Source: an uncultured Gammaproteobacteria bacterium (GTDB taxonomy: Bacteria; Patescibacteriota; Patescibacteriia; Magasanikbacterales; GWA2-37-8). From it: a stretch of DNA of 64,000 nucleotides. Both the position numbers and the translations under genes were made by a program. Where the stretch lies: assembly GCA_964533715.1 (NCBI GenBank), contig CAZHNI010000001.1, forward strand, positions 5,514 through 69,513, in the 5' to 3' direction. Below the pieces are notes generated by a model. It was given only the letters and a program-made list of their open reading frames with translations. It was not told the origin of the DNA and made no database searches. Shown here piece by piece: positions 19,476-64,000 of this stretch (positions within the stretch are counted from its first letter, which is position 1; every line of letters starts with the position of its first letter).

Positions 19476-20004
19476 CATTAAAAATCCCCCGCAGTATGAG
19501 CGAGGGATTTTAGTTGTTTATTTTTTAAGACTCTTTGGTTTCATCCAGTAATTTTTACGACGGAATTTTTTTGTTTTTCGTGCCAAGGAGTGGGCTTTTT
19601 TAGTATTTTTTTTGGCGTGTTTTAAACGAGAGCGCAAGGCTGTGTTCATAAGATGATTATTTAAAAGTTTGGGTATAATAGCAGATTATCTTTAAAAATG
19701 CAAATTTTGCTTAGTCAAGCAAAAACTTTTCATTAAATTTTAAATTATTATTCGAGTAATTTAATTACCTAACCGTTGGTTGATACTCAGAATAGTACAC
19801 CTATAAAGTACACCTATACTTGACACCTGTAACAAATTGGTGTAGGCTTGTTTTGCCAAACTCCTGGCTTTTTTTGTTACCCAATTCGCCGCACCGCGCA
19901 TGTGGTGGGTAGGGAACAGGGGAACCACGGAGTTACAACCACGGGCCGCGCACGGCTGCGCGCGCCCACATCCCGCTACGCGAAAGGCGGGAGGAGGATT
20001 GACC

Positions 20005-21513
20005 ATGTTGCATCGCTGGTTCGTCACGATCGTGGCGTTCGCCTTGGCCCTGGGCCTCGGCAGCGCCGTCAACATCAACGTCAACAGCAACCGCCCCGTC
20101 CTCGGCGCCATCGTCGGCGTACTGGGTGAGGGGGTGGCGGCCGCGCAGGTGCCGACCAACTACCGGTTCTTCAACGGCACCGGCGTGAACGGCCAGCTCG
20201 GCCAGCCCTACACGCAGGGCGCTCAGTCGGCGCTCAAGGTGCGGATCGAGAAGGTGTGGCCCACCATCGCCAAGCGGCACCAGAATGCCCTGGAGTATTA
20301 TGGGGTAATGGCCAACACCAACTGGTTCAGGAACAACTCCGGTCCGCAAGGGGAGTACTGGTTCGTGGCGGGGATCTTCCGCCAGCTCACCAAGATCCCG
20401 CTGGACGACCGAAACAAGACAAACGAGGCACTGGTGGGAAAGATCTCATCGGATCCTGACTATGTCGACTCGCTGATGATCATGAACAAGACCGGCGCGC
20501 TCATCAGCGGTGGGTACGTGGGCGAGGTGCACGTCTATTTCGGCGATGTGAAGGGTGGGTGCACGCCGAACGCCCTGGCCTACTACTTCTCTCCCCCTGA
20601 CATTTCGGGGATGAAGGTAGTCGGAGTTGTGCTCTGCGGAGACGACGGCGTCCGGGTGGCCAACTTGCCAACCGACTTCGGTGGTTTCGATACTACCCTG
20701 GAAAGCATCTTCGTCCACGAGTTCGCGCATGCCGTCGACGACGTACACAAGGCAACCACAGGCAATGAGCTGAACATCTCGGATATCATGGAGATGGATC
20801 GGTCCTGCATCCGGGTCTACGGGTTGAAGGGGATCTTGGCGTTGGTGGGGAACTCGGCCTACGATCCGCTCACGTATCTCGATCTGCGAACCATCGCGGA
20901 TTGGTACCCGATCTGGGTGTCGGTGATCAACTACAATTACGATGCTTCGAAGCAGATACTGGTCGGGATGAACGTGGCGGGCGGGTCGTGCGGAGGTGTG
21001 CAAGACGATGTCGGGACGTGCAAGAACGGGCAGACCCCCGTTGCCGCTTGCGGCGGCCTCCCCATCGGCGACGCCGGCACCCCTACCGACGGGGGCATAG
21101 CACCCCTCGACCTCGGCGGCAGCTTCAGAACCCCTTGCACCTCCGACTCGCAGTGCGCCAGCAAGGTGTGCCAAGACGGCCTTTGCCGCAGCCCGTACTG
21201 CGGCAACGGAGTTTTGAACCGCGTGGGTGTCGGAGGAGGCTCCGGTGAGTCCGACATTGACTGCGGAGGGGAGGAATGCGGCAGGTGCGCCGATGGCAAG
21301 AAGTGCTTCGCGGCCACCGACTGCAAGTCCGGCGTGTGCACCGGCGGCAAGTGCGCGGGGGGCGGTGATGTCCAGGGCGGCTGCGATGTCGGCACCGGAC
21401 GCGGTGACCGCAACTGGGGCGCCATTGTGCTCCTGCTCGCTGTGCTCCTCATCTTTTCGTCGGCCATCGCCGCTTGGCGGCAGTTCGAACGGAAGCAAGG
21501 GCGTCGCACCTAG
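20005..21513 (+). CDS. secreted, C-terminally membrane-anchored zinc metalloprotease-like protein with a Cys-rich stalk
   Basis: RBS GGAGGAGG 8 nt upstream of ATG 20005. Signal peptide MLHRWFVTIVAFALALGLGSA. HEFAHAVDDVH, an HExxH motif with a third His at metzincin spacing. Repeated CxxGxC modules (CGNGVLN, CGGEECGRC, CKSGVCTGGKC), a C-terminal TM helix and a basic tail. Confidence 0.6.
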   Translation: MLHRWFVTIVAFALALGLGSAVNINVNSNRPVLGAIVGVLGEGVAAAQVPTNYRFFNGTGVNGQLGQPYTQGAQSALKVRIEKVWPTIAKRHQNALEYYGVMANTNWFRNNSGPQGEYWFVAGIFRQLTKIPLDDRNKTNEALVGKISSDPDYVDSLMIMNKTGALISGGYVGEVHVYFGDVKGGCTPNALAYYFSPPDISGMKVVGVVLCGDDGVRVANLPTDFGGFDTTLESIFVHEFAHAVDDVHKATTGNELNISDIMEMDRSCIRVYGLKGILALVGNSAYDPLTYLDLRTIADWYPIWVSVINYNYDASKQILVGMNVAGGSCGGVQDDVGTCKNGQTPVAACGGLPIGDAGTPTDGGIAPLDLGGSFRTPCTSDSQCASKVCQDGLCRSPYCGNGVLNRVGVGGGSGESDIDCGGEECGRCADGKKCFAATDCKSGVCTGGKCAGGGDVQGGCDVGTGRGDRNWGAIVLLLAVLLIFSSAIAAWRQFERKQGRRT

Positions 21514-57802: not shown

Positions 57803-58933
57803 ATGAAAAACATGCAACCGCCGCTCACCTGGGTTGAAATAAGCCGTTCGGCTTTTAATTACAATATTTCAGCCTTCCGTAAACGTATTGGGAAAAAAGT
57901 GCTTCTCATGCCAGTTATAAAATCCAATGCATACGGGCATGATATTGTTTTGATTGGAAAGTTATGTGAAGCTAATGCTGATGTTGATAGAATTTGTGTG
58001 GTAAGTTTAGATGAAGCCTTGCTTTTGCGTAAAAATGGGATTACCAAACCCATTGTTATTCTAGCAATCTATTCTTTTGAAGAGCGCAAAATTGCTGAGG
58101 CAGTTCGTAAAAAAATTATTTTCCCTTTGTATACACGTGAACAAGCCAAGTTAATCCATACAGTTGCAAAGAGGCTCCACACAAAGGCCCTAGTTCATCT
58201 CAAAGTGGATATTGGGACATCCCGAATTGGCGTGCCCGTTGCAGAACTTCCTGTATTTTTAAAAGATATTAAAACATGTTCACATCTTATTTTTGATGGG
58301 GTGTTCGGGCATTTTGCCTCGAGCGAAGATGACGCCGAAAGAACAAATAAACAAAACAGCACTTTTCAAAAAGCACTCACAATTTTAAAAACAGCCGGCC
58401 TATCTGTTCCGGTACAACACGTTGCTTGTTCGGCTTCTACAACTTTACACGCAAAAACTCACTACAATGCAGTCCGTGTTGGCCTTGGAGTGTATGGTTT
58501 AGACCCTTCAGGTGCTTCCCGTAAGAAAATAGAATTAAAACCTATTCTGCAGTGGTTTACCACAATACTACAAACTAAAACCGTTCCAGCCGGCACTCAG
58601 GTGAGCTATGGCGGCACCTATACAACAAAACAAAAAACCACTCTTGCCACCCTTCCGGTAGGCTATTTTGACGGGTATGATAGGGGATTTTCTAATAATT
58701 CCGTTGTCCTAGTACGAGGAAAACGTTGCCCAGTTAGAGGGCGGGTATGCATGAATTTAAGCATAATTGACATTACTGGCGTTCCTAATGTTAAAGCAGG
58801 GGACACCGTAGTACTTCTTGGTACAAATAAAAAAGTAAATGTGAGCGCCGACGAGCTTGCCAAAAATATTAACACCATCAATTACGAGATAGTTACTCGA
58901 ATAAATCAGAACATTCCTCGGTTAGTTGTTTAA
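57803..58933 (+). CDS. alr: alanine racemase
   Basis: PLP-Lys motif VIKSNAYGHD and a C-terminal beta domain (SYGGTYT...VCMNLSIIDIT). Confidence 0.8.
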   Translation: MKNMQPPLTWVEISRSAFNYNISAFRKRIGKKVLLMPVIKSNAYGHDIVLIGKLCEANADVDRICVVSLDEALLLRKNGITKPIVILAIYSFEERKIAEAVRKKIIFPLYTREQAKLIHTVAKRLHTKALVHLKVDIGTSRIGVPVAELPVFLKDIKTCSHLIFDGVFGHFASSEDDAERTNKQNSTFQKALTILKTAGLSVPVQHVACSASTTLHAKTHYNAVRVGLGVYGLDPSGASRKKIELKPILQWFTTILQTKTVPAGTQVSYGGTYTTKQKTTLATLPVGYFDGYDRGFSNNSVVLVRGKRCPVRGRVCMNLSIIDITGVPNVKAGDTVVLLGTNKKVNVSADELAKNINTINYEIVTRINQNIPRLVV

Positions 58934-59945
58934 ATGTATGCGATACTTTCGTTCTTCACAAAGCTTTCGCAGTTATGAGCCGCGTGAAGGCTGGCTAAAG
59001 CGTTGGAAAAAGAGACGTGCACAGCGAAAATTTAAGCCCGTTTCTTTATTACCAATTCACGACTGGGGGCGCAACCCTTTTGTGAGAGAAAATAACCATA
59101 ATGGTTATTCGATACGTTTTCGTGTTCTAATTTTCTTATGTATTGTTATTAGTTGGGTAGGATTAGTTTTATTTTTACCATTCTTTAAAATCACTCAAAT
59201 TCGTTATTCGGGTCTAAAGATAATTCAACAAAATGAACTCGAAGCCGCGGTTCGAGAAAATTTTTTTACACCTCGTTTATTTATCCCTCGCGACAATTAT
59301 TTTTTAGTAAATCCAACAAAAATTGAAGCATTTTTGAAACAAAGGTACGCAGTTCGTTCAATTCATATCCAGAAAATTTTTCCGCACACTTTACAAATAA
59401 ATATTGAAGAGAGTTCGGCTACGCTGATATACGATAATGGCTCAAACTATTTTTTACTCGATGAATTTGGAACCGCTATTAAATCCCTGGGCCAAACAAG
59501 CGACAACACCTTACCCCAGCCTATTTCTGCTACCTCTATCACCAGTACCTTTTTTGTTAATTCCACAGCTAGCACAACCAATCACGCCCCAGATTTCCGC
59601 AAACTAATAAAAGAATATGGTGGTTTGTATCCAATTGTATTTGATAAACGCAAGTTAGTAATAAACGAAAAACAAACGGGGATTCTGAAACCGGATTTTA
59701 TTTCTGCGTTAATCACGCTTTCCGATCAGATTAAAAAACAAAAAATTGTGAGCATGGTTTATTACTTTACCATGGATAACCCCGAGAGTGGGGTAGGGGT
59801 GATTTCTAACCAACCCTGGCGAATTGATATTCGGCCACTTGGTGACTTAAATACGCAACTGGAAAATTTTCGGTATATTTTAAAATCAAACCATCCAACA
59901 GAATACGTTGACGTCCGTTTTGGAGACCGTGTGTACTGGAAATAG
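58926..59945 (+). CDS. ftsQ: FtsQ/DivIB-like cell division protein (TM helix plus POTRA domain)
   Basis: Single TM helix VLIFLCIVISWVGLVLFLPFF followed by a POTRA-like block (ITQIRYSGLKIIQQNELEAAV...IHIQKIFPHTLQINIEE). Confidence 0.45.
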   Translation: MFKCMRYFRSSQSFRSYEPREGWLKRWKKRRAQRKFKPVSLLPIHDWGRNPFVRENNHNGYSIRFRVLIFLCIVISWVGLVLFLPFFKITQIRYSGLKIIQQNELEAAVRENFFTPRLFIPRDNYFLVNPTKIEAFLKQRYAVRSIHIQKIFPHTLQINIEESSATLIYDNGSNYFLLDEFGTAIKSLGQTSDNTLPQPISATSITSTFFVNSTASTTNHAPDFRKLIKEYGGLYPIVFDKRKLVINEKQTGILKPDFISALITLSDQIKKQKIVSMVYYFTMDNPESGVGVISNQPWRIDIRPLGDLNTQLENFRYILKSNHPTEYVDVRFGDRVYWK

Positions 59946-60073
59946 GCGGGCCTCTTTAAAAGAGAGGGGGCCAATAGAACCAAAGGGTTCCGTGTTACTC
60001 AACGTCGTATAACATAGACAAAATGGCTAAGGTTAGTTGAAATAACGACCTAGCCAGTTATCCAAGTGACTAA

Positions 60074-60100
60074 CCAAGTTGATTAACAACTTGGTTTTTT
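60074..60100 (+). terminator. rho-independent terminator
   Basis: CCAAGTTG-attaa-CAACTTGG perfect hairpin followed by TTTTTT. It marks the boundary between the housekeeping block and the phage-like block. Confidence 0.6.
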
Positions 60101-60569
60101 GTGCTTATAAAAGGTCGAAAATATATGCACAAAATCTTCCCACATAGTATTCACTCAACTGGTAGTGTTTGCTCCATAGGCCCGGGAAGGCCTCGTGCAG
60201 AGTTTACACTACTGGTTTAGTGAATTTTTTATTATGTACGCCTTTATGAAGACCTACCGCGATTGCTTTAATTCTCATGGCATAATGTCGGGCCGAGAAA
60301 AAACTCATTACGGATTAGCAATCATGGTTACTATCCTGTTTATTTCCGCTCTTTACGGACTACGGCTCTTACAAAATTATTTAGCTTACCAAAACCTATG
60401 TCGGACACACAAACCTGCGGCCACGACGTGTCAGGTGACGATGCGCGAGTTATTGGAGATGTAGTTTGTTGCGCTGGTTGCCAAGATCGTTATTATGCCG
60501 CAAAGCAAGAAGAAGAAAATTAAAAATCCGCCTGCGTTACAGCGCGAAGCGGATTTAACCTAAAACTAT

Positions 60570-61292
60570 ATGACTACTGAATTAAGTATAGCAGACATTA
60601 AAAAAGAACTCAATGCACAGATTAAGGATCCGGAAACGCTTAAATCTTTGTTGGTTACTACCTTCAAAGGTTTAACCGCGGACACAGCCAAACAAGCCAT
60701 GTTAGAAGGGATGATGCGCGGTTTTACTTTCAAGGACTTTCTCCAGAAAAATGTTTATGCCGTGCCGTTCGGTCAATCTTACAGCCTTGTTACGTCGATT
60801 GATAATGCCAGAAGAATAGGCATGCGCAATGATGTGGTAGGCAAAACAGCCCCAATCTACGAGGAAGAGGTTATTACTACCGGCGAGAAAAAGGTAAACA
60901 AAATCGTTTCGTGCACTGTTACAGTAAAACGCAAAATTAAGGACTACATAGGTGATTTTACAGCGACGGTATTCTTTGATGAGTATAACACGGGACGCAA
61001 CCAATGGGCTTCCAAGCCGCGCACCATGATCGCTAAAGTTGCCGAGATGCACGCCCTGCGCATGGCTTGCCCGGAAGACGCCTCGCAGATGTACCTTGAG
61101 GAAGAATACGAAAAAGAAACAATCGTTGAAGAAGAGATATTTAATCTTGAGGAGCACAAATTAAAATTAGAAGCCTGTAAAAATCTTGAAGAAGTAAAAA
61201 CAGTTTGGGCCTCTTTACCGGCTAAAGCTAAAGGCGAGCTGTTTACACTCAAAGAAGAAATGAAAAAAAAATATGAAAGTCCTAAAGTTTAA
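60570..61292 (+). CDS. recT: RecT-family single-strand annealing protein
   Basis: RecT core including W..KPRTMIAKVAEMHALRMACPED, matching the RecT W-x-P-x-M-x-x-K-x-A motif. Confidence 0.65.
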   Translation: MTTELSIADIKKELNAQIKDPETLKSLLVTTFKGLTADTAKQAMLEGMMRGFTFKDFLQKNVYAVPFGQSYSLVTSIDNARRIGMRNDVVGKTAPIYEEEVITTGEKKVNKIVSCTVTVKRKIKDYIGDFTATVFFDEYNTGRNQWASKPRTMIAKVAEMHALRMACPEDASQMYLEEEYEKETIVEEEIFNLEEHKLKLEACKNLEEVKTVWASLPAKAKGELFTLKEEMKKKYESPKV

Positions 61293-61875
61293 TAACGAGG
61301 AAGCGTGGCTAGAAGCCCGCAAAACTAAAATAACCGGTTCGCGCCTCAAGGATATTGTCGTCAAACGCGGTACAGGGCAAAAAATAGGCTATTACGAGCT
61401 TATTGCCGAGCGTTTGGCGCTTCCACCTAACGGACAAGACCCAATGGACAGAGGGCACGAATTAGAGAAAGAAGCGATGGAGCGGTTTACTAAGGAAATG
61501 GGAAAAAAGGTTGATGGGAGTTTGGTAATTTGGACGCGAGAGGACAACGAAAGTATTGCAATTTCACCAGATGGTTTTATTGGTAAAACCGAGGCCGTTG
61601 AGGTGAAGTGTTTATCATCGGCCCGGCACATTGAAGCGTTTTTAACGCAACAGATACCAGACGAATATCACTTGCAAGTCATTCAATACTTCATCGTAAA
61701 CGACAAACTCAAAACTCTATATTTCTGTTTCTACGATCCGCGTTTATCGGTTAAAGATTTTTTCTATATCACAGTTGAGCGCGAACAAATTAAGGAAGAA
61801 GTTGATAATTATTTGGAGTATCAAAAAAAGATTCTGCAAGAGGTAAACGACATAGTGAACAAGTTGACGTTCTAA
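61273..61875 (+). CDS. YqaJ-like viral recombinase exonuclease (lambda Exo-like PD-(D/E)xK)
   Basis: N-terminal EAWLEARKTKITGSRLKDIV (the YqaJ QGSxEWLxxRxGxxTAS pattern) and a D...EVK catalytic core; overlaps the recT stop. Confidence 0.65.
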   Translation: MKVLKFNNEEAWLEARKTKITGSRLKDIVVKRGTGQKIGYYELIAERLALPPNGQDPMDRGHELEKEAMERFTKEMGKKVDGSLVIWTREDNESIAISPDGFIGKTEAVEVKCLSSARHIEAFLTQQIPDEYHLQVIQYFIVNDKLKTLYFCFYDPRLSVKDFFYITVEREQIKEEVDNYLEYQKKILQEVNDIVNKLTF

Positions 61876-62233
61876 TTTTCTAGCTCACTCGCGCTCCTAG
61901 TTACAAATTCTGGGGGCGCGGTGAGGCGGATAAAAACCGATTATTGTTGGTGGTGCACACACCGCGTATGGTGCTTGAATAAAGCATTGTACGAAAGGCC
62001 TGTGCCACACCAAGAGGAATAGGTTTTACCATGCTTTTTTTAACCTATGAAACGCCCAAAGTGGGAACAAAAACTCAATAATTTAGAGCAAAAATTCTTT
62101 TTGTCATCTAAGCAAAACCCACTCCCGACCGAGCGGGATATTTTGATTTTTTATTGGGAGAAATTGAAGCCATTACTGATTGAGTTTATACAGAGAAATT
62201 TTGTTTTGAGAAAGAAAATTAAAAAGTAATTAT

Positions 62234-62962
62234 ATGGCAAAAAATAGAATCGTAAATACCAAATTTTGGATGGACGATTATATTTCTAACCTTGATCCGG
62301 TTGAAAAATTGCTATTTTTGTACTTTATAACTTGTCCGGCTACGGATATTTCTGGTGTATATGAAGTTCCAATTAAAACGGTGGCGACTGATACCGGAAT
62401 TGACCACCAAACTGTTACCAGAATTATTAAGCGTTTTACCCGCGACAAGAAGATTTTTTATATCCATGGATGGGTTGGAGTGGCAAATTTTGCCAAACAC
62501 CAACTTAATAATCCAAAAGTACAGGCAGGTATTAAAAATGGCTTATCTAAGGCACCAAAAGAGATTTTAGATAGACTATCATTGTCTATGGATAGTCTAT
62601 TGCACACAGACACAGACACAGACACAGACACAGACACAGACATTGAGAGAGAGCGACCACAAGCACTTGAAAAACAAATCGAACCATTTTCCGGCCAATA
62701 CGCACCCTCAATGATCGCCAAATTCATTCTTCACTGGTCGGAACAAGACAAACGCGGTCGGGAGCGCTGGCAGAAAGAAAAAACGTGGGAAATTGGTAAG
62801 CGTCTGGCGCGCTGGAAATTACAGGATGAAGAATGGAGTCATCAGCGCGATGCGCGGCAAGAGTTAAAAAAGGTCGAAGAGATGCCAACCCACCGAGAAC
62901 CGGTAGCAGAGAGAACAGACACAGGATTTTCAAAACCAGATTTTAGTAGGTTTCAAAAATAA
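62234..62962 (+). CDS. phage replisome-organizer-like protein (N-terminal winged-helix domain) with internal (TD)7 repeat
   Basis: N-terminus NTKFWMDDYISNLDPVEKLLFLYFI resembles the phage replication-organizer N-terminal family; weak call. Confidence 0.4.
   Translation: MAKNRIVNTKFWMDDYISNLDPVEKLLFLYFITCPATDISGVYEVPIKTVATDTGIDHQTVTRIIKRFTRDKKIFYIHGWVGVANFAKHQLNNPKVQAGIKNGLSKAPKEILDRLSLSMDSLLHTDTDTDTDTDTDIERERPQALEKQIEPFSGQYAPSMIAKFILHWSEQDKRGRERWQKEKTWEIGKRLARWKLQDEEWSHQRDARQELKKVEEMPTHREPVAERTDTGFSKPDFSRFQK
62604..62643. repeat. (ACAGAC)n hexanucleotide microsatellite inside the replisome-organizer-like gene
   Basis: CACAGACACAGACACAGACACAGACACAGACACAGACA encodes TDTDTDTDTDTDTD. Confidence 0.8.
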
Positions 62963-62963
62963 T

Positions 62964-63317
62964 ATGACCAACAAATTTCAAATTGCCTCCACGATTGAAT
63001 CAATCGCCACTCGTTCTGATAACACGATTAAAGTTGTTCTCGGTACTCAAGAGCTTGAACCCGACCAAGCAACCGCGTTATTTGCCCTAAAAGGCAAATT
63101 AGGCTGGTTTCTTTTCTCGGAAACAACATTGAATGAAGCTGACATACCAAAAGAGCCTATAAACGAATTTAAACGCGATAAAAGCCCATCACAGAGGTTA
63201 AGGGATTGCTTGTATGTGTGGTGGTCTAAAAATACTAACAAAAATAAACCGTTTGATGACGTATGGAAAGAGTGGTGTAACCGAAAATGCGAGGAAATTA
63301 AGGAGACATTAAATTAG
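62964..63317 (+). CDS. hypothetical phage-region protein
   Basis: ORF only. Confidence 0.3.
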   Translation: MTNKFQIASTIESIATRSDNTIKVVLGTQELEPDQATALFALKGKLGWFLFSETTLNEADIPKEPINEFKRDKSPSQRLRDCLYVWWSKNTNKNKPFDDVWKEWCNRKCEEIKETLN

Positions 63318-63318
63318 T

Positions 63319-63684
63319 ATGAAAATTAAAATTTGGCCTGCCGATAAAATTTTTAGTCAAATTATTAGAAAAAGAGATAAAAAATGCGTGAGGTGTCAAT
63401 CTAAAGTTGAATTTAATTCTTCTGGTGAACCGATCAGTCATCAGTGTAGCCATTATTGGGGACGGGGAAACTGGGGGACACGATATGACCCCGAAAATTG
63501 TGACACCCTGTGTATGCCCTGTCATCGGATCTGGGGTGGCGATGACCGGCGAGTGTATGAAAATTTTAAACGCAAGCAACTAGGTGAACGTGGTTATAAT
63601 CTTTTGGAGATGAGAAAAAACGCTTATGCGAAAAGGGATTATAAATTAGCATTGATTTATGTTAAAGAGCTTTTGAAAAAATAA
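63319..63684 (+). CDS. Cys/His zinc-finger phage protein (NinG/Rap-like, HNH-like His-Me finger)
   Basis: CVRC...HQCSHYWGRGNWGTRYDPENCDTLCMPCH pattern. Confidence 0.4.
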   Translation: MKIKIWPADKIFSQIIRKRDKKCVRCQSKVEFNSSGEPISHQCSHYWGRGNWGTRYDPENCDTLCMPCHRIWGGDDRRVYENFKRKQLGERGYNLLEMRKNAYAKRDYKLALIYVKELLKK

Positions 63685-63688
63685 ATAT

Positions 63689-63937
63689 ATGCCCTCAGGC
63701 TATATTGAAAAACCAACACAAGAAAAACGAGTATTAGAAATTTTACGTGCCGCTCACGGGCAACCGGTAGACGGAATGGTTTTTTATAACCTAGAGCGGC
63801 CAATCACGCAGTACCATGCCAGAATATGGAGCTTGCAGAAAAAGGGTTTTAAAATTGAGCCGGTTGAGTTGGAAGGCAAAAATTGGAAGGCGTACAAACT
63901 GATTGAGGAACCAGTACAAACAAAATTGTTTAATTAA
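63689..63937 (+). CDS. hypothetical small phage-region protein
   Basis: ORF only. Confidence 0.25.
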   Translation: MPSGYIEKPTQEKRVLEILRAAHGQPVDGMVFYNLERPITQYHARIWSLQKKGFKIEPVELEGKNWKAYKLIEEPVQTKLFN

Positions 63938-64000
63938 CCCTTAATTAGATTGAGGTATGGAGAAAATAATTTTAGATTTGTGTGGCGGTACAGGGTCGTG

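Follow-up and report, generated by a model that had tools for sequence, protein, structure and literature searches.

In phage lambda, the gene for the single-strand annealing protein (SSAP) is transcribed before the exonuclease gene. In the early region of phage SPP1, an exonuclease (G34.1P), a RecT-like SSAP (G35P) and a replisome organizer (G38P) are encoded, and the skin element of B. subtilis possesses the yqaJ-yqaK pair. Here we analyzed a block of phage-like genes at the end of a 64,000-nucleotide stretch of DNA from contig CAZHNI010000001.1 (this whole stretch is called the window). The block, at 60.05-64.0 kb, is probably the left (early) arm of a prophage that belongs to a tailed-phage lineage of 38-42 kb and lies just 3' of the host gene ftsQ. 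The first-pass annotation of this DNA had stated that prophages are rarely documented in small-genome bacteria of this kind. That statement is out of date, because prophages of about 44 kb in Paceibacteria (PMC12455944) and prophages and mostly temperate phages of Patescibacteria (PMC12455944; groundwater survey PMC12911398) have been described. The part of the element in view is about 3.9 kb long and ends at window position 64000.

The gene set of the block resembles that of lambda Red and Rap (exo, bet and ninG/rap). That is, it encodes a Bet-family annealing protein, a lambda-Exo homologue and a NinG/Rap-like nuclease, and the SSAP gene precedes the exonuclease gene as in lambda. However, none of the GenBank phages searched has an SSAP more than 31% identical to that of the window, which also scores under the equivalog cutoff for lambda Bet (59 vs 77 bits), the NinG-like protein has no match among these GenBank phages, and no recognisable Gam is encoded in the window. 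Moreover, the genes of the window form one rightward operon beside a replication gene, whereas lambda has them partly at pL and partly in the nin region. The block also resembles SPP1 and the skin element, in that a two-component recombinase consisting of a YqaJ-type nuclease and a RecT-family protein stands beside a DnaD-like organizer in one early operon. It differs from SPP1 in that, as far as the window reaches, no gene for a single-stranded-DNA-binding protein, a helicase loader or a helicase separates these genes or follows them, that Phage_rep_org_N was not detected in the organizer, and that the host is a Patescibacterium and not a Firmicute. The reported Patescibacteria prophages have a host of the same phylum and, like the element described here, are integrated in small genomes; the relatives of this element have a similar genome size of 38-45 kb and come from groundwater and sediment metagenomes similar to those of the reported phages. 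Here, unlike in the reported prophages, it was the comparison with relatives that defined the integration site 3' of ftsQ and the end on the phage side.

Directly before the block, the window encodes alanine racemase (alr, 57803-58933) and an FtsQ-type POTRA protein (ftsQ, 58926-59945), both identified by Pfam. Proteins identical to those of the window are recorded from a single NCBI contig, which is 137,070 bp long. The best relatives of the alanine racemase are from Candidatus Magasanikbacteria, Parcubacteria or the Patescibacteria group. Judging from the sequence, the host is a member of the Patescibacteria (Candidate Phyla Radiation, CPR) whose closest named relatives are Candidatus Magasanikbacteria, and this agrees with the small-genome CPR host proposed earlier. 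From a UvrD/PD-(D/E)XK helicase through alr and ftsQ, the window has the same gene order as L048, a Patescibacteria contig of 779 kb, and the collinear stretch includes the genes for this helicase, MreB, MreC, PBP2, GreA, LysRS and SerRS. The identity of alr to that of the window is 53% in L048/L049 and 62% in a closer relative, L046. In these relatives, ftsQ is followed by one or two small genes, an Xer-like tyrosine recombinase (L046 4355-5323; L048 13650-14615), an M23 peptidase, gltX, wecG and clpB, and no phage genes were found after ftsQ in L046 or L048/L049. The change from housekeeping to phage genes after about 60100 had been noticed in the first-pass annotation, and it was borne out far beyond chance. 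The block is not syntenic across the relatives: two of them lack it at this site, and a third carries it elsewhere. As seen from these gene orders, the block is a foreign insertion that interrupts conserved host synteny.

The Xer-type recombinase lies one to three genes past ftsQ in both relatives, and a switch of gene strand follows it. Because Xer follows ftsQ in L046 and L048, the prophage of the window may adjoin the host Xer gene and lie near a change of gene orientation.

In order to delimit the insertion, we compared the DNA on its two sides with that of relatives. The host intergenic DNA 3' of ftsQ (59946-60020, + strand) contains the motif AACGTCGTATAA at 60001-60012, and its position is conserved in the relatives. 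This motif of 12-20 nt is present just 3' of ftsQ in the window, L046 and L048/L049; it lies, with the extension AACGTCGTATAA[C/G]ATA, at window 60001-60018, L046 3645-3656 and L048 12162-12179. No second copy was found in the window or among the 82 loci compared. Since the motif is kept 3' of ftsQ, the host DNA reaches at least to about 60020. The motif is kept at the DNA level although the three FtsQ proteins are only 31-40% identical, and it may act as a promoter or as some other small regulatory element.

The other side was defined with the aid of L056 (CAZPCV010000009.1), a contig from a metagenome-assembled genome labelled Gammaproteobacteria. The host genes and tRNAs of L056 are collinear with the window at 15.6-19.3 kb, with 50-64% amino acid identity, and L056 was therefore probably mis-binned in that genome. 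In L056, the phage genes stand directly after ftsE-ftsX-tRNA-Gln, a chromosomal site differing from that of the window. The SSAP and the exonuclease of L056 are 70% and 75% identical, respectively, to the window proteins. This identity is higher than that of the host genes and is found at a different site, which points to recent mobility rather than old domestication.

The left ends of the two copies have features in common. In the window, a hairpin with a T-run, which resembles an intrinsic terminator, lies on the + strand at 60072-60102 (the hairpin and T-run itself at 60072-60096). L056 has a hairpin and T-run at the same place, with a different stem in the same AACC...GGTTTTTTGT frame, beside a different host gene. 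In addition, the block AAAGGTCGAAAA..TATATGC is common to both, and its chance expectation is zero matches in the window. In the window this block is the centre of a 13-nt inverted repeat, TTTTGTGCTTATA-N12-TATATGCACAAAA with AAAGGTCGAAAA at its centre (60097-60134), which, by its sequence, is a candidate operator or recombinase-binding site. These common features place the phage-side end at about 60072. The host/prophage junction (attL) therefore lies within 60020-60072, between the host motif on the left and the first block common to L056 on the right. The strong terminator described in the first-pass annotation is present as a hairpin with a T-run, but the two sequences compared suggest that it is probably the first feature of the element and not the terminator of ftsQ.

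Several further searches concerned the junction and the phage ends. No tRNA and no credible Rfam match was found at the junction. In the closest free phage, no second copy of a terminal repeat was found. Integration of the XerCD/dif type was dropped for lack of support, though not disproved, as no dif-like site was found in the window or the loci. The left-end motif was rejected as a marker of attP in free phages: its ten viral matches were chance matches, having no common genes. We also found that the left-end motif AAAAGGTCGAA (60105-60124) recurs at 62864-62883, at the 3' end of the organizer gene, with 17 of 20 bases identical. Either chance or a second binding site may account for this copy.

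The phage origin of the block was well supported by its relatives, that is, by 43 viral loci, by the order of organizer, 117-aa protein and NinG in free phages, and by the absence of the block in related hosts. The 43 IMG/VR contigs with relatives of the SSAP (28-63% identity) are mostly 30-45 kb long, and the nearest homologues of four window genes are on contigs with terminase, portal and capsid genes. A 38-kb contig (L055/L078) has the gene order of the window, with an organizer of 48%, a 117-aa protein of 64% and a NinG of 68% identity. Past NinG, a stretch of about 9 kb in this contig contains small genes and tRNAs together with genes for an RNA ligase and a kinase-phosphatase, and the genes for TerS, TerL, portal, scaffold and major capsid proteins follow. 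In a 38.8-kb Logan contig (L045), NinG is 73% identical and TerL is encoded 7 kb downstream; its annealing protein is of the ERF type in place of the RecT type. A third type of phage has NinG paired with ERF and ParB. The TerL proteins of L055/L078 and L045 are 61% identical. These comparisons show a mosaic phage group, in which NinG travels together with the late region.

In 14 loci, a lysin (a C1-like peptidase with peptidoglycan-binding repeats) is encoded a few small genes 5' of the SSAP. This arrangement places attP between the lysis and the early genes, and a circular phage genome opened there would give the gene order of the window. The lineage is known only from metagenomes and is about 38-42 kb in size. 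The genes for terminase, structural proteins, lysis and any integrase should be beyond 64000.

A cluster of five tRNA genes is found in related phages together with genes for an RNA ligase and a polynucleotide kinase-phosphatase (L055 6760-7201 and 7231-9705), and this group of genes looks like a tRNA-repair set. A chaperonin-like protein of about 500 aa is encoded in five other loci (for example, L027 5367-6881).

The genes of the block are co-oriented on the + strand up to 64000, with minimal or overlapping spacers, and all open reading frames (ORFs) named in the first-pass annotation were present where it had placed them. The assignment of a RecT-type SSAP (60570-61292, 240 aa) was confirmed by Pfam RecT PF03837 (59 bits vs a cutoff of 24, E 6e-16, residues 58-184) and by matches to PHROG 10056/252, which contain RecT-like and Bet-like annealing proteins. 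The sole NCBIfam match was bet_lambda (TIGR01913; E 5.2e-16, 59.1 bits vs an equivalog cutoff of 76.95). By these profiles the SSAP is Bet-like, with lambda Bet as a closer relative than RecT proper, but not an equivalog, and the annealing of single-stranded DNA is its predicted role. No PDB sequence matched it, including when a 29-sequence profile was used. Besides the 43 viral relatives there are 12 genomic ones. SSAP relatives with 48-55% identity are also encoded within large contigs of proteobacteria, of which one comes from an isolate, so the recombinase pair is not specific to CPR.

The start of the exonuclease gene (61273-61875, 200 aa) overlaps the end of the SSAP gene by 20 nt, and its assignment as a YqaJ-type enzyme held as well (PF09588, 64.6 bits vs a cutoff of 22, E 1.6e-17). 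Residues 8-173 of this lambda-Exo/YqaJ-type 5'-3' exonuclease align to the lambda exonuclease structure 1avq (E 7.7e-11) and to 3syy (E 6.3e-13). The PD-(D/E)XK triad, as read from the translation, is formed by D100 and E110-V-K112, and their spacing equals that of D119/E129/K131 in lambda Exo. The exonuclease gene lies directly 3' of the SSAP gene in 33 of the 43 viral loci and also in most genomic loci.

The protein at 62234-62962 (242 aa) is a DnaD-like replisome organizer or replication initiator according to its matches to PHROG 1701 'DnaD-like helicase loader' (4.5e-18, positions 1-156) and PHROG 6251 'replisome organizer' (3.8e-14) and to its homologues. These matches fall in the N-terminal 110-155 residues. 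In this respect the earlier proposal of a replisome organizer stood, but neither the whole protein nor its N-terminal 120 aa matched Phage_rep_org_N (PF09681) or DnaD of Pfam at E <= 0.1; only weak helix-turn-helix (HTH) matches were obtained in Pfam. The homologue in L055 showed a sub-threshold match to Phage_rep_org_N (0.0062, 17 bits vs 23.3). Other homologues are in L044 (64%), L019 and L018. The protein consists of an N-terminal winged helix, a (TD)6 linker and a basic C-terminal part. The organizer could not be linked to the Lin1244_N-type initiators that related phages have: profile comparison gave a probability of 14%, which is not significant, and the single-sequence fold of the organizer was too poor for use (predicted local distance difference test score, pLDDT, 46.7). 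No iterons or origin repeats were found near the gene by the repeat scan, which detected only the coding microsatellite described below. DnaB-type genes are present near the locus in the relatives L056 and L001.

The microsatellite (ACACAG)6.5 (62604-62642, + strand), in the central part of the gene, encodes the (TD)6 linker. The independent Logan assembly of the same DNA stops at this microsatellite, and its copy number may therefore vary within the population.

The NinG-like protein (63319-63684, 121 aa) matched PHROG 5034 'NinG/Rap' (2.2e-13). The family assignment made earlier is supported by this match, by the homologues and by fold prediction, but not by Pfam: the window protein itself did not match NinG PF05766 and matched HNH only at 0.0085. 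PF05766 is present in 25 of 70 database homologues, which are 38-61% identical. The residues C23, C26, H45, C65 and H69 are invariant in the family. The AlphaFold2 model of the protein had a pLDDT of 95.8, and its top Foldseek matches were the HNH nucleases McrA, Cap5 and GVE2 HNH, with a high probability (up to 0.99) but a weak E value (7.8e-3). The model supports an HNH (beta-beta-alpha-metal) fold with Cys/His ligands, and the cleavage of branched DNA is predicted by analogy with the Rap family.

Between the organizer and NinG-like genes, a conserved hypothetical protein of 117 aa is encoded (62964-63317). It has no family match in Pfam, PHROG or NCBIfam, and its homologue in phage contig L055, mentioned above, has the same position; that is, this protein travels with NinG.

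How these proteins might act together can be considered from the families of lambda Red, Rap and DnaD/SPP1 G38P as follows. On induction, transcription of the operon would begin at its left end and proceed to the right. Double-strand ends would be resected in the 5'-3' direction by the lambda-Exo-type nuclease, and the Bet/RecT-type protein, translationally coupled to the nuclease, would anneal the 3' tails, so that the two would form a lambda-Red-like two-component recombinase. The DnaD-like organizer would bind the phage origin, recruit a helicase and start phage replication, and the NinG/Rap-like HNH nuclease would cut branched recombination intermediates. The joint outcome would be recombination-dependent replication, giving concatemers for the terminase and packaging functions encoded further right.

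Some results weigh against a prophage arm at this site. The visible 3.9 kb lacks an integrase, a cI-like repressor and an att direct repeat, and it contains neither structural nor lysis genes. In the close relatives, no tyrosine or serine recombinase was detected at a distance of up to 10 kb from the SSAP gene. For this search, tyrosine recombinases were sought by jackhmmer seeded with the host Xer and serine recombinases by a motif scan; the matches of the jackhmmer search were limited to two distant relatives and a single unrelated locus, and the motif scan found none. An integrase may be at the unseen right end. With the TerL profile, none of the best 120 of 3267 matches was from the source contig, the family being too large for this to be informative. 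Lastly, the junction is in one assembly; the NinG of the window was absent from the genome, viral and metagenome collections, and the sole other assembly of this DNA, a Logan contig, is an internal fragment of 1.4 kb (1433 bp; identical DNA in run SRR11567528).

Among the other explanations, the one that survives best, though we consider it unlikely, is a cryptic remnant, in which an early recombination and replication module is left, the late genes are lost, and the module may aid recombination or repair of the host. Many genomic prophages are defective, and Rac in E. coli is an example of a cryptic prophage. The absence of integrase and repressor from the visible left end and of a source-contig sequence from the best 120 TerL matches would fit a remnant, and the view ends at 64000. 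However, none of the eight ORFs in view is disrupted, they overlap or have minimal spacers between them, and the catalytic and metal-binding residues are conserved. Moreover, a block that is absent at the site in two relatives, and in a third is found elsewhere with an identity above that of the host genes, does not favor a remnant. As judged from the sequence, the element is a mobile phage-derived insertion whose genes are intact and tightly packed, and we lean towards a full-length element.

A bolder explanation, which we regard as rather improbable, is that a complete inducible temperate phage of a Magasanikbacteria-like CPR host uses unrelated intergenic sites (3' of ftsQ here, after tRNA-Gln in L056) without an early-end integrase, perhaps by means of a recombinase at its far end or of the host Xer-like recombinase that adjoins this site in relatives, and carries a CPR-native Red-like pair usable for recombineering.

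It is very unlikely that the block is a non-viral integrative element or a phage satellite, lacking virion genes itself and having taken over a recombination and replication module of phage type. The lack of an integrase or structural gene in view would agree with such an element, and so would the 110-kb contig L057, in which a distant SSAP-exonuclease pair (55-59%) adjoins VirD4/TraD-like ATPases; but the terminase, portal and capsid contigs that carry the nearest homologues of four window genes, and the matching gene order, speak against it. That a free phage contig was mis-joined to a host contig is hardly credible: the source is metagenome-assembled and the junction is seen in a single assembly, but the L056 assembly joins the same phage lineage to a host at the same end with the hairpin and the AAAGGTCGAAAA block, a random mis-join would not reproduce this end point, two independent assemblies with the same phage end coordinate thus argue against a chimeric join, the G+C content of the last 4 kb (0.39-0.43) is the same as in the remaining window and continuous with the host, and no repeat spanning the junction was found.

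The prophage arm contains further small features. Directly 5' of the SSAP gene there is a stem-loop (60524-60556, + strand; -16.2 kcal/mol, z = -3.4). It differs by 1 nt from its counterpart in L056 (9956-9989), where the coding DNA around it is about 70% identical. In other relatives, different hairpins occupy its place, and it was absent from the metagenome contigs searched. This stem-loop may be an attenuator or a processing signal.

Two small ORFs of uncertain coding status precede it on the + strand. An 89-aa ORF with a GTG start and a hydrophobic segment (60195-60464) had no family match and no homologue in any compared locus. A Cys-rich ORF of 41 aa ends in EEEN (60398-60523), and L056 has a small acidic ORF ending in EEN at the same position. 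After the exonuclease gene, a 60-aa ORF without assigned function (62047-62229, + strand) had no family match and was found in the identical Logan contig L050. The last gene in view encodes a small winged-helix protein of 82 aa (63689-63937, + strand). It showed a weak match to Pfam HTH_39 (0.0073) and has homologues of 53-61% identity in four viral contigs, and from these matches it is a possible regulator.

Apart from the phage block, we noticed a 537-aa ORF at window 19900-21513 (+ strand), right after tRNA-Gly(ccc). It lies within a high-GC stretch at 20-22 kb and has a G+C content of about 60%, compared to about 40% for the genome. The ORF had no Pfam match; it shows a hydrophobic segment at the N-terminus and a zinc-protease-like motif HEFAH, and its C-terminal part is rich in Cys and Gly and has a membrane anchor at the C-terminus. 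By its composition and layout, it looks like a horizontally acquired surface protein.

The module described here is a standard phage early module, and it does not change what is known of phage recombination or of CPR biology. What the prophage 3' of ftsQ offers is a single, well-delimited example of a lysogenic Patescibacteria genome, with the integration point mapped to about 50 bp. The second relative, which is independently integrated at another site, indicates that this phage lineage moves among related small-genome hosts. The intact and very divergent Bet/Exo/Rap-like set could plausibly supply recombineering proteins adapted to CPR hosts. If the phage proved to be complete, the Bet/Exo pair would be a CPR-native lambda-Red-like system for these hard-to-manipulate bacteria.

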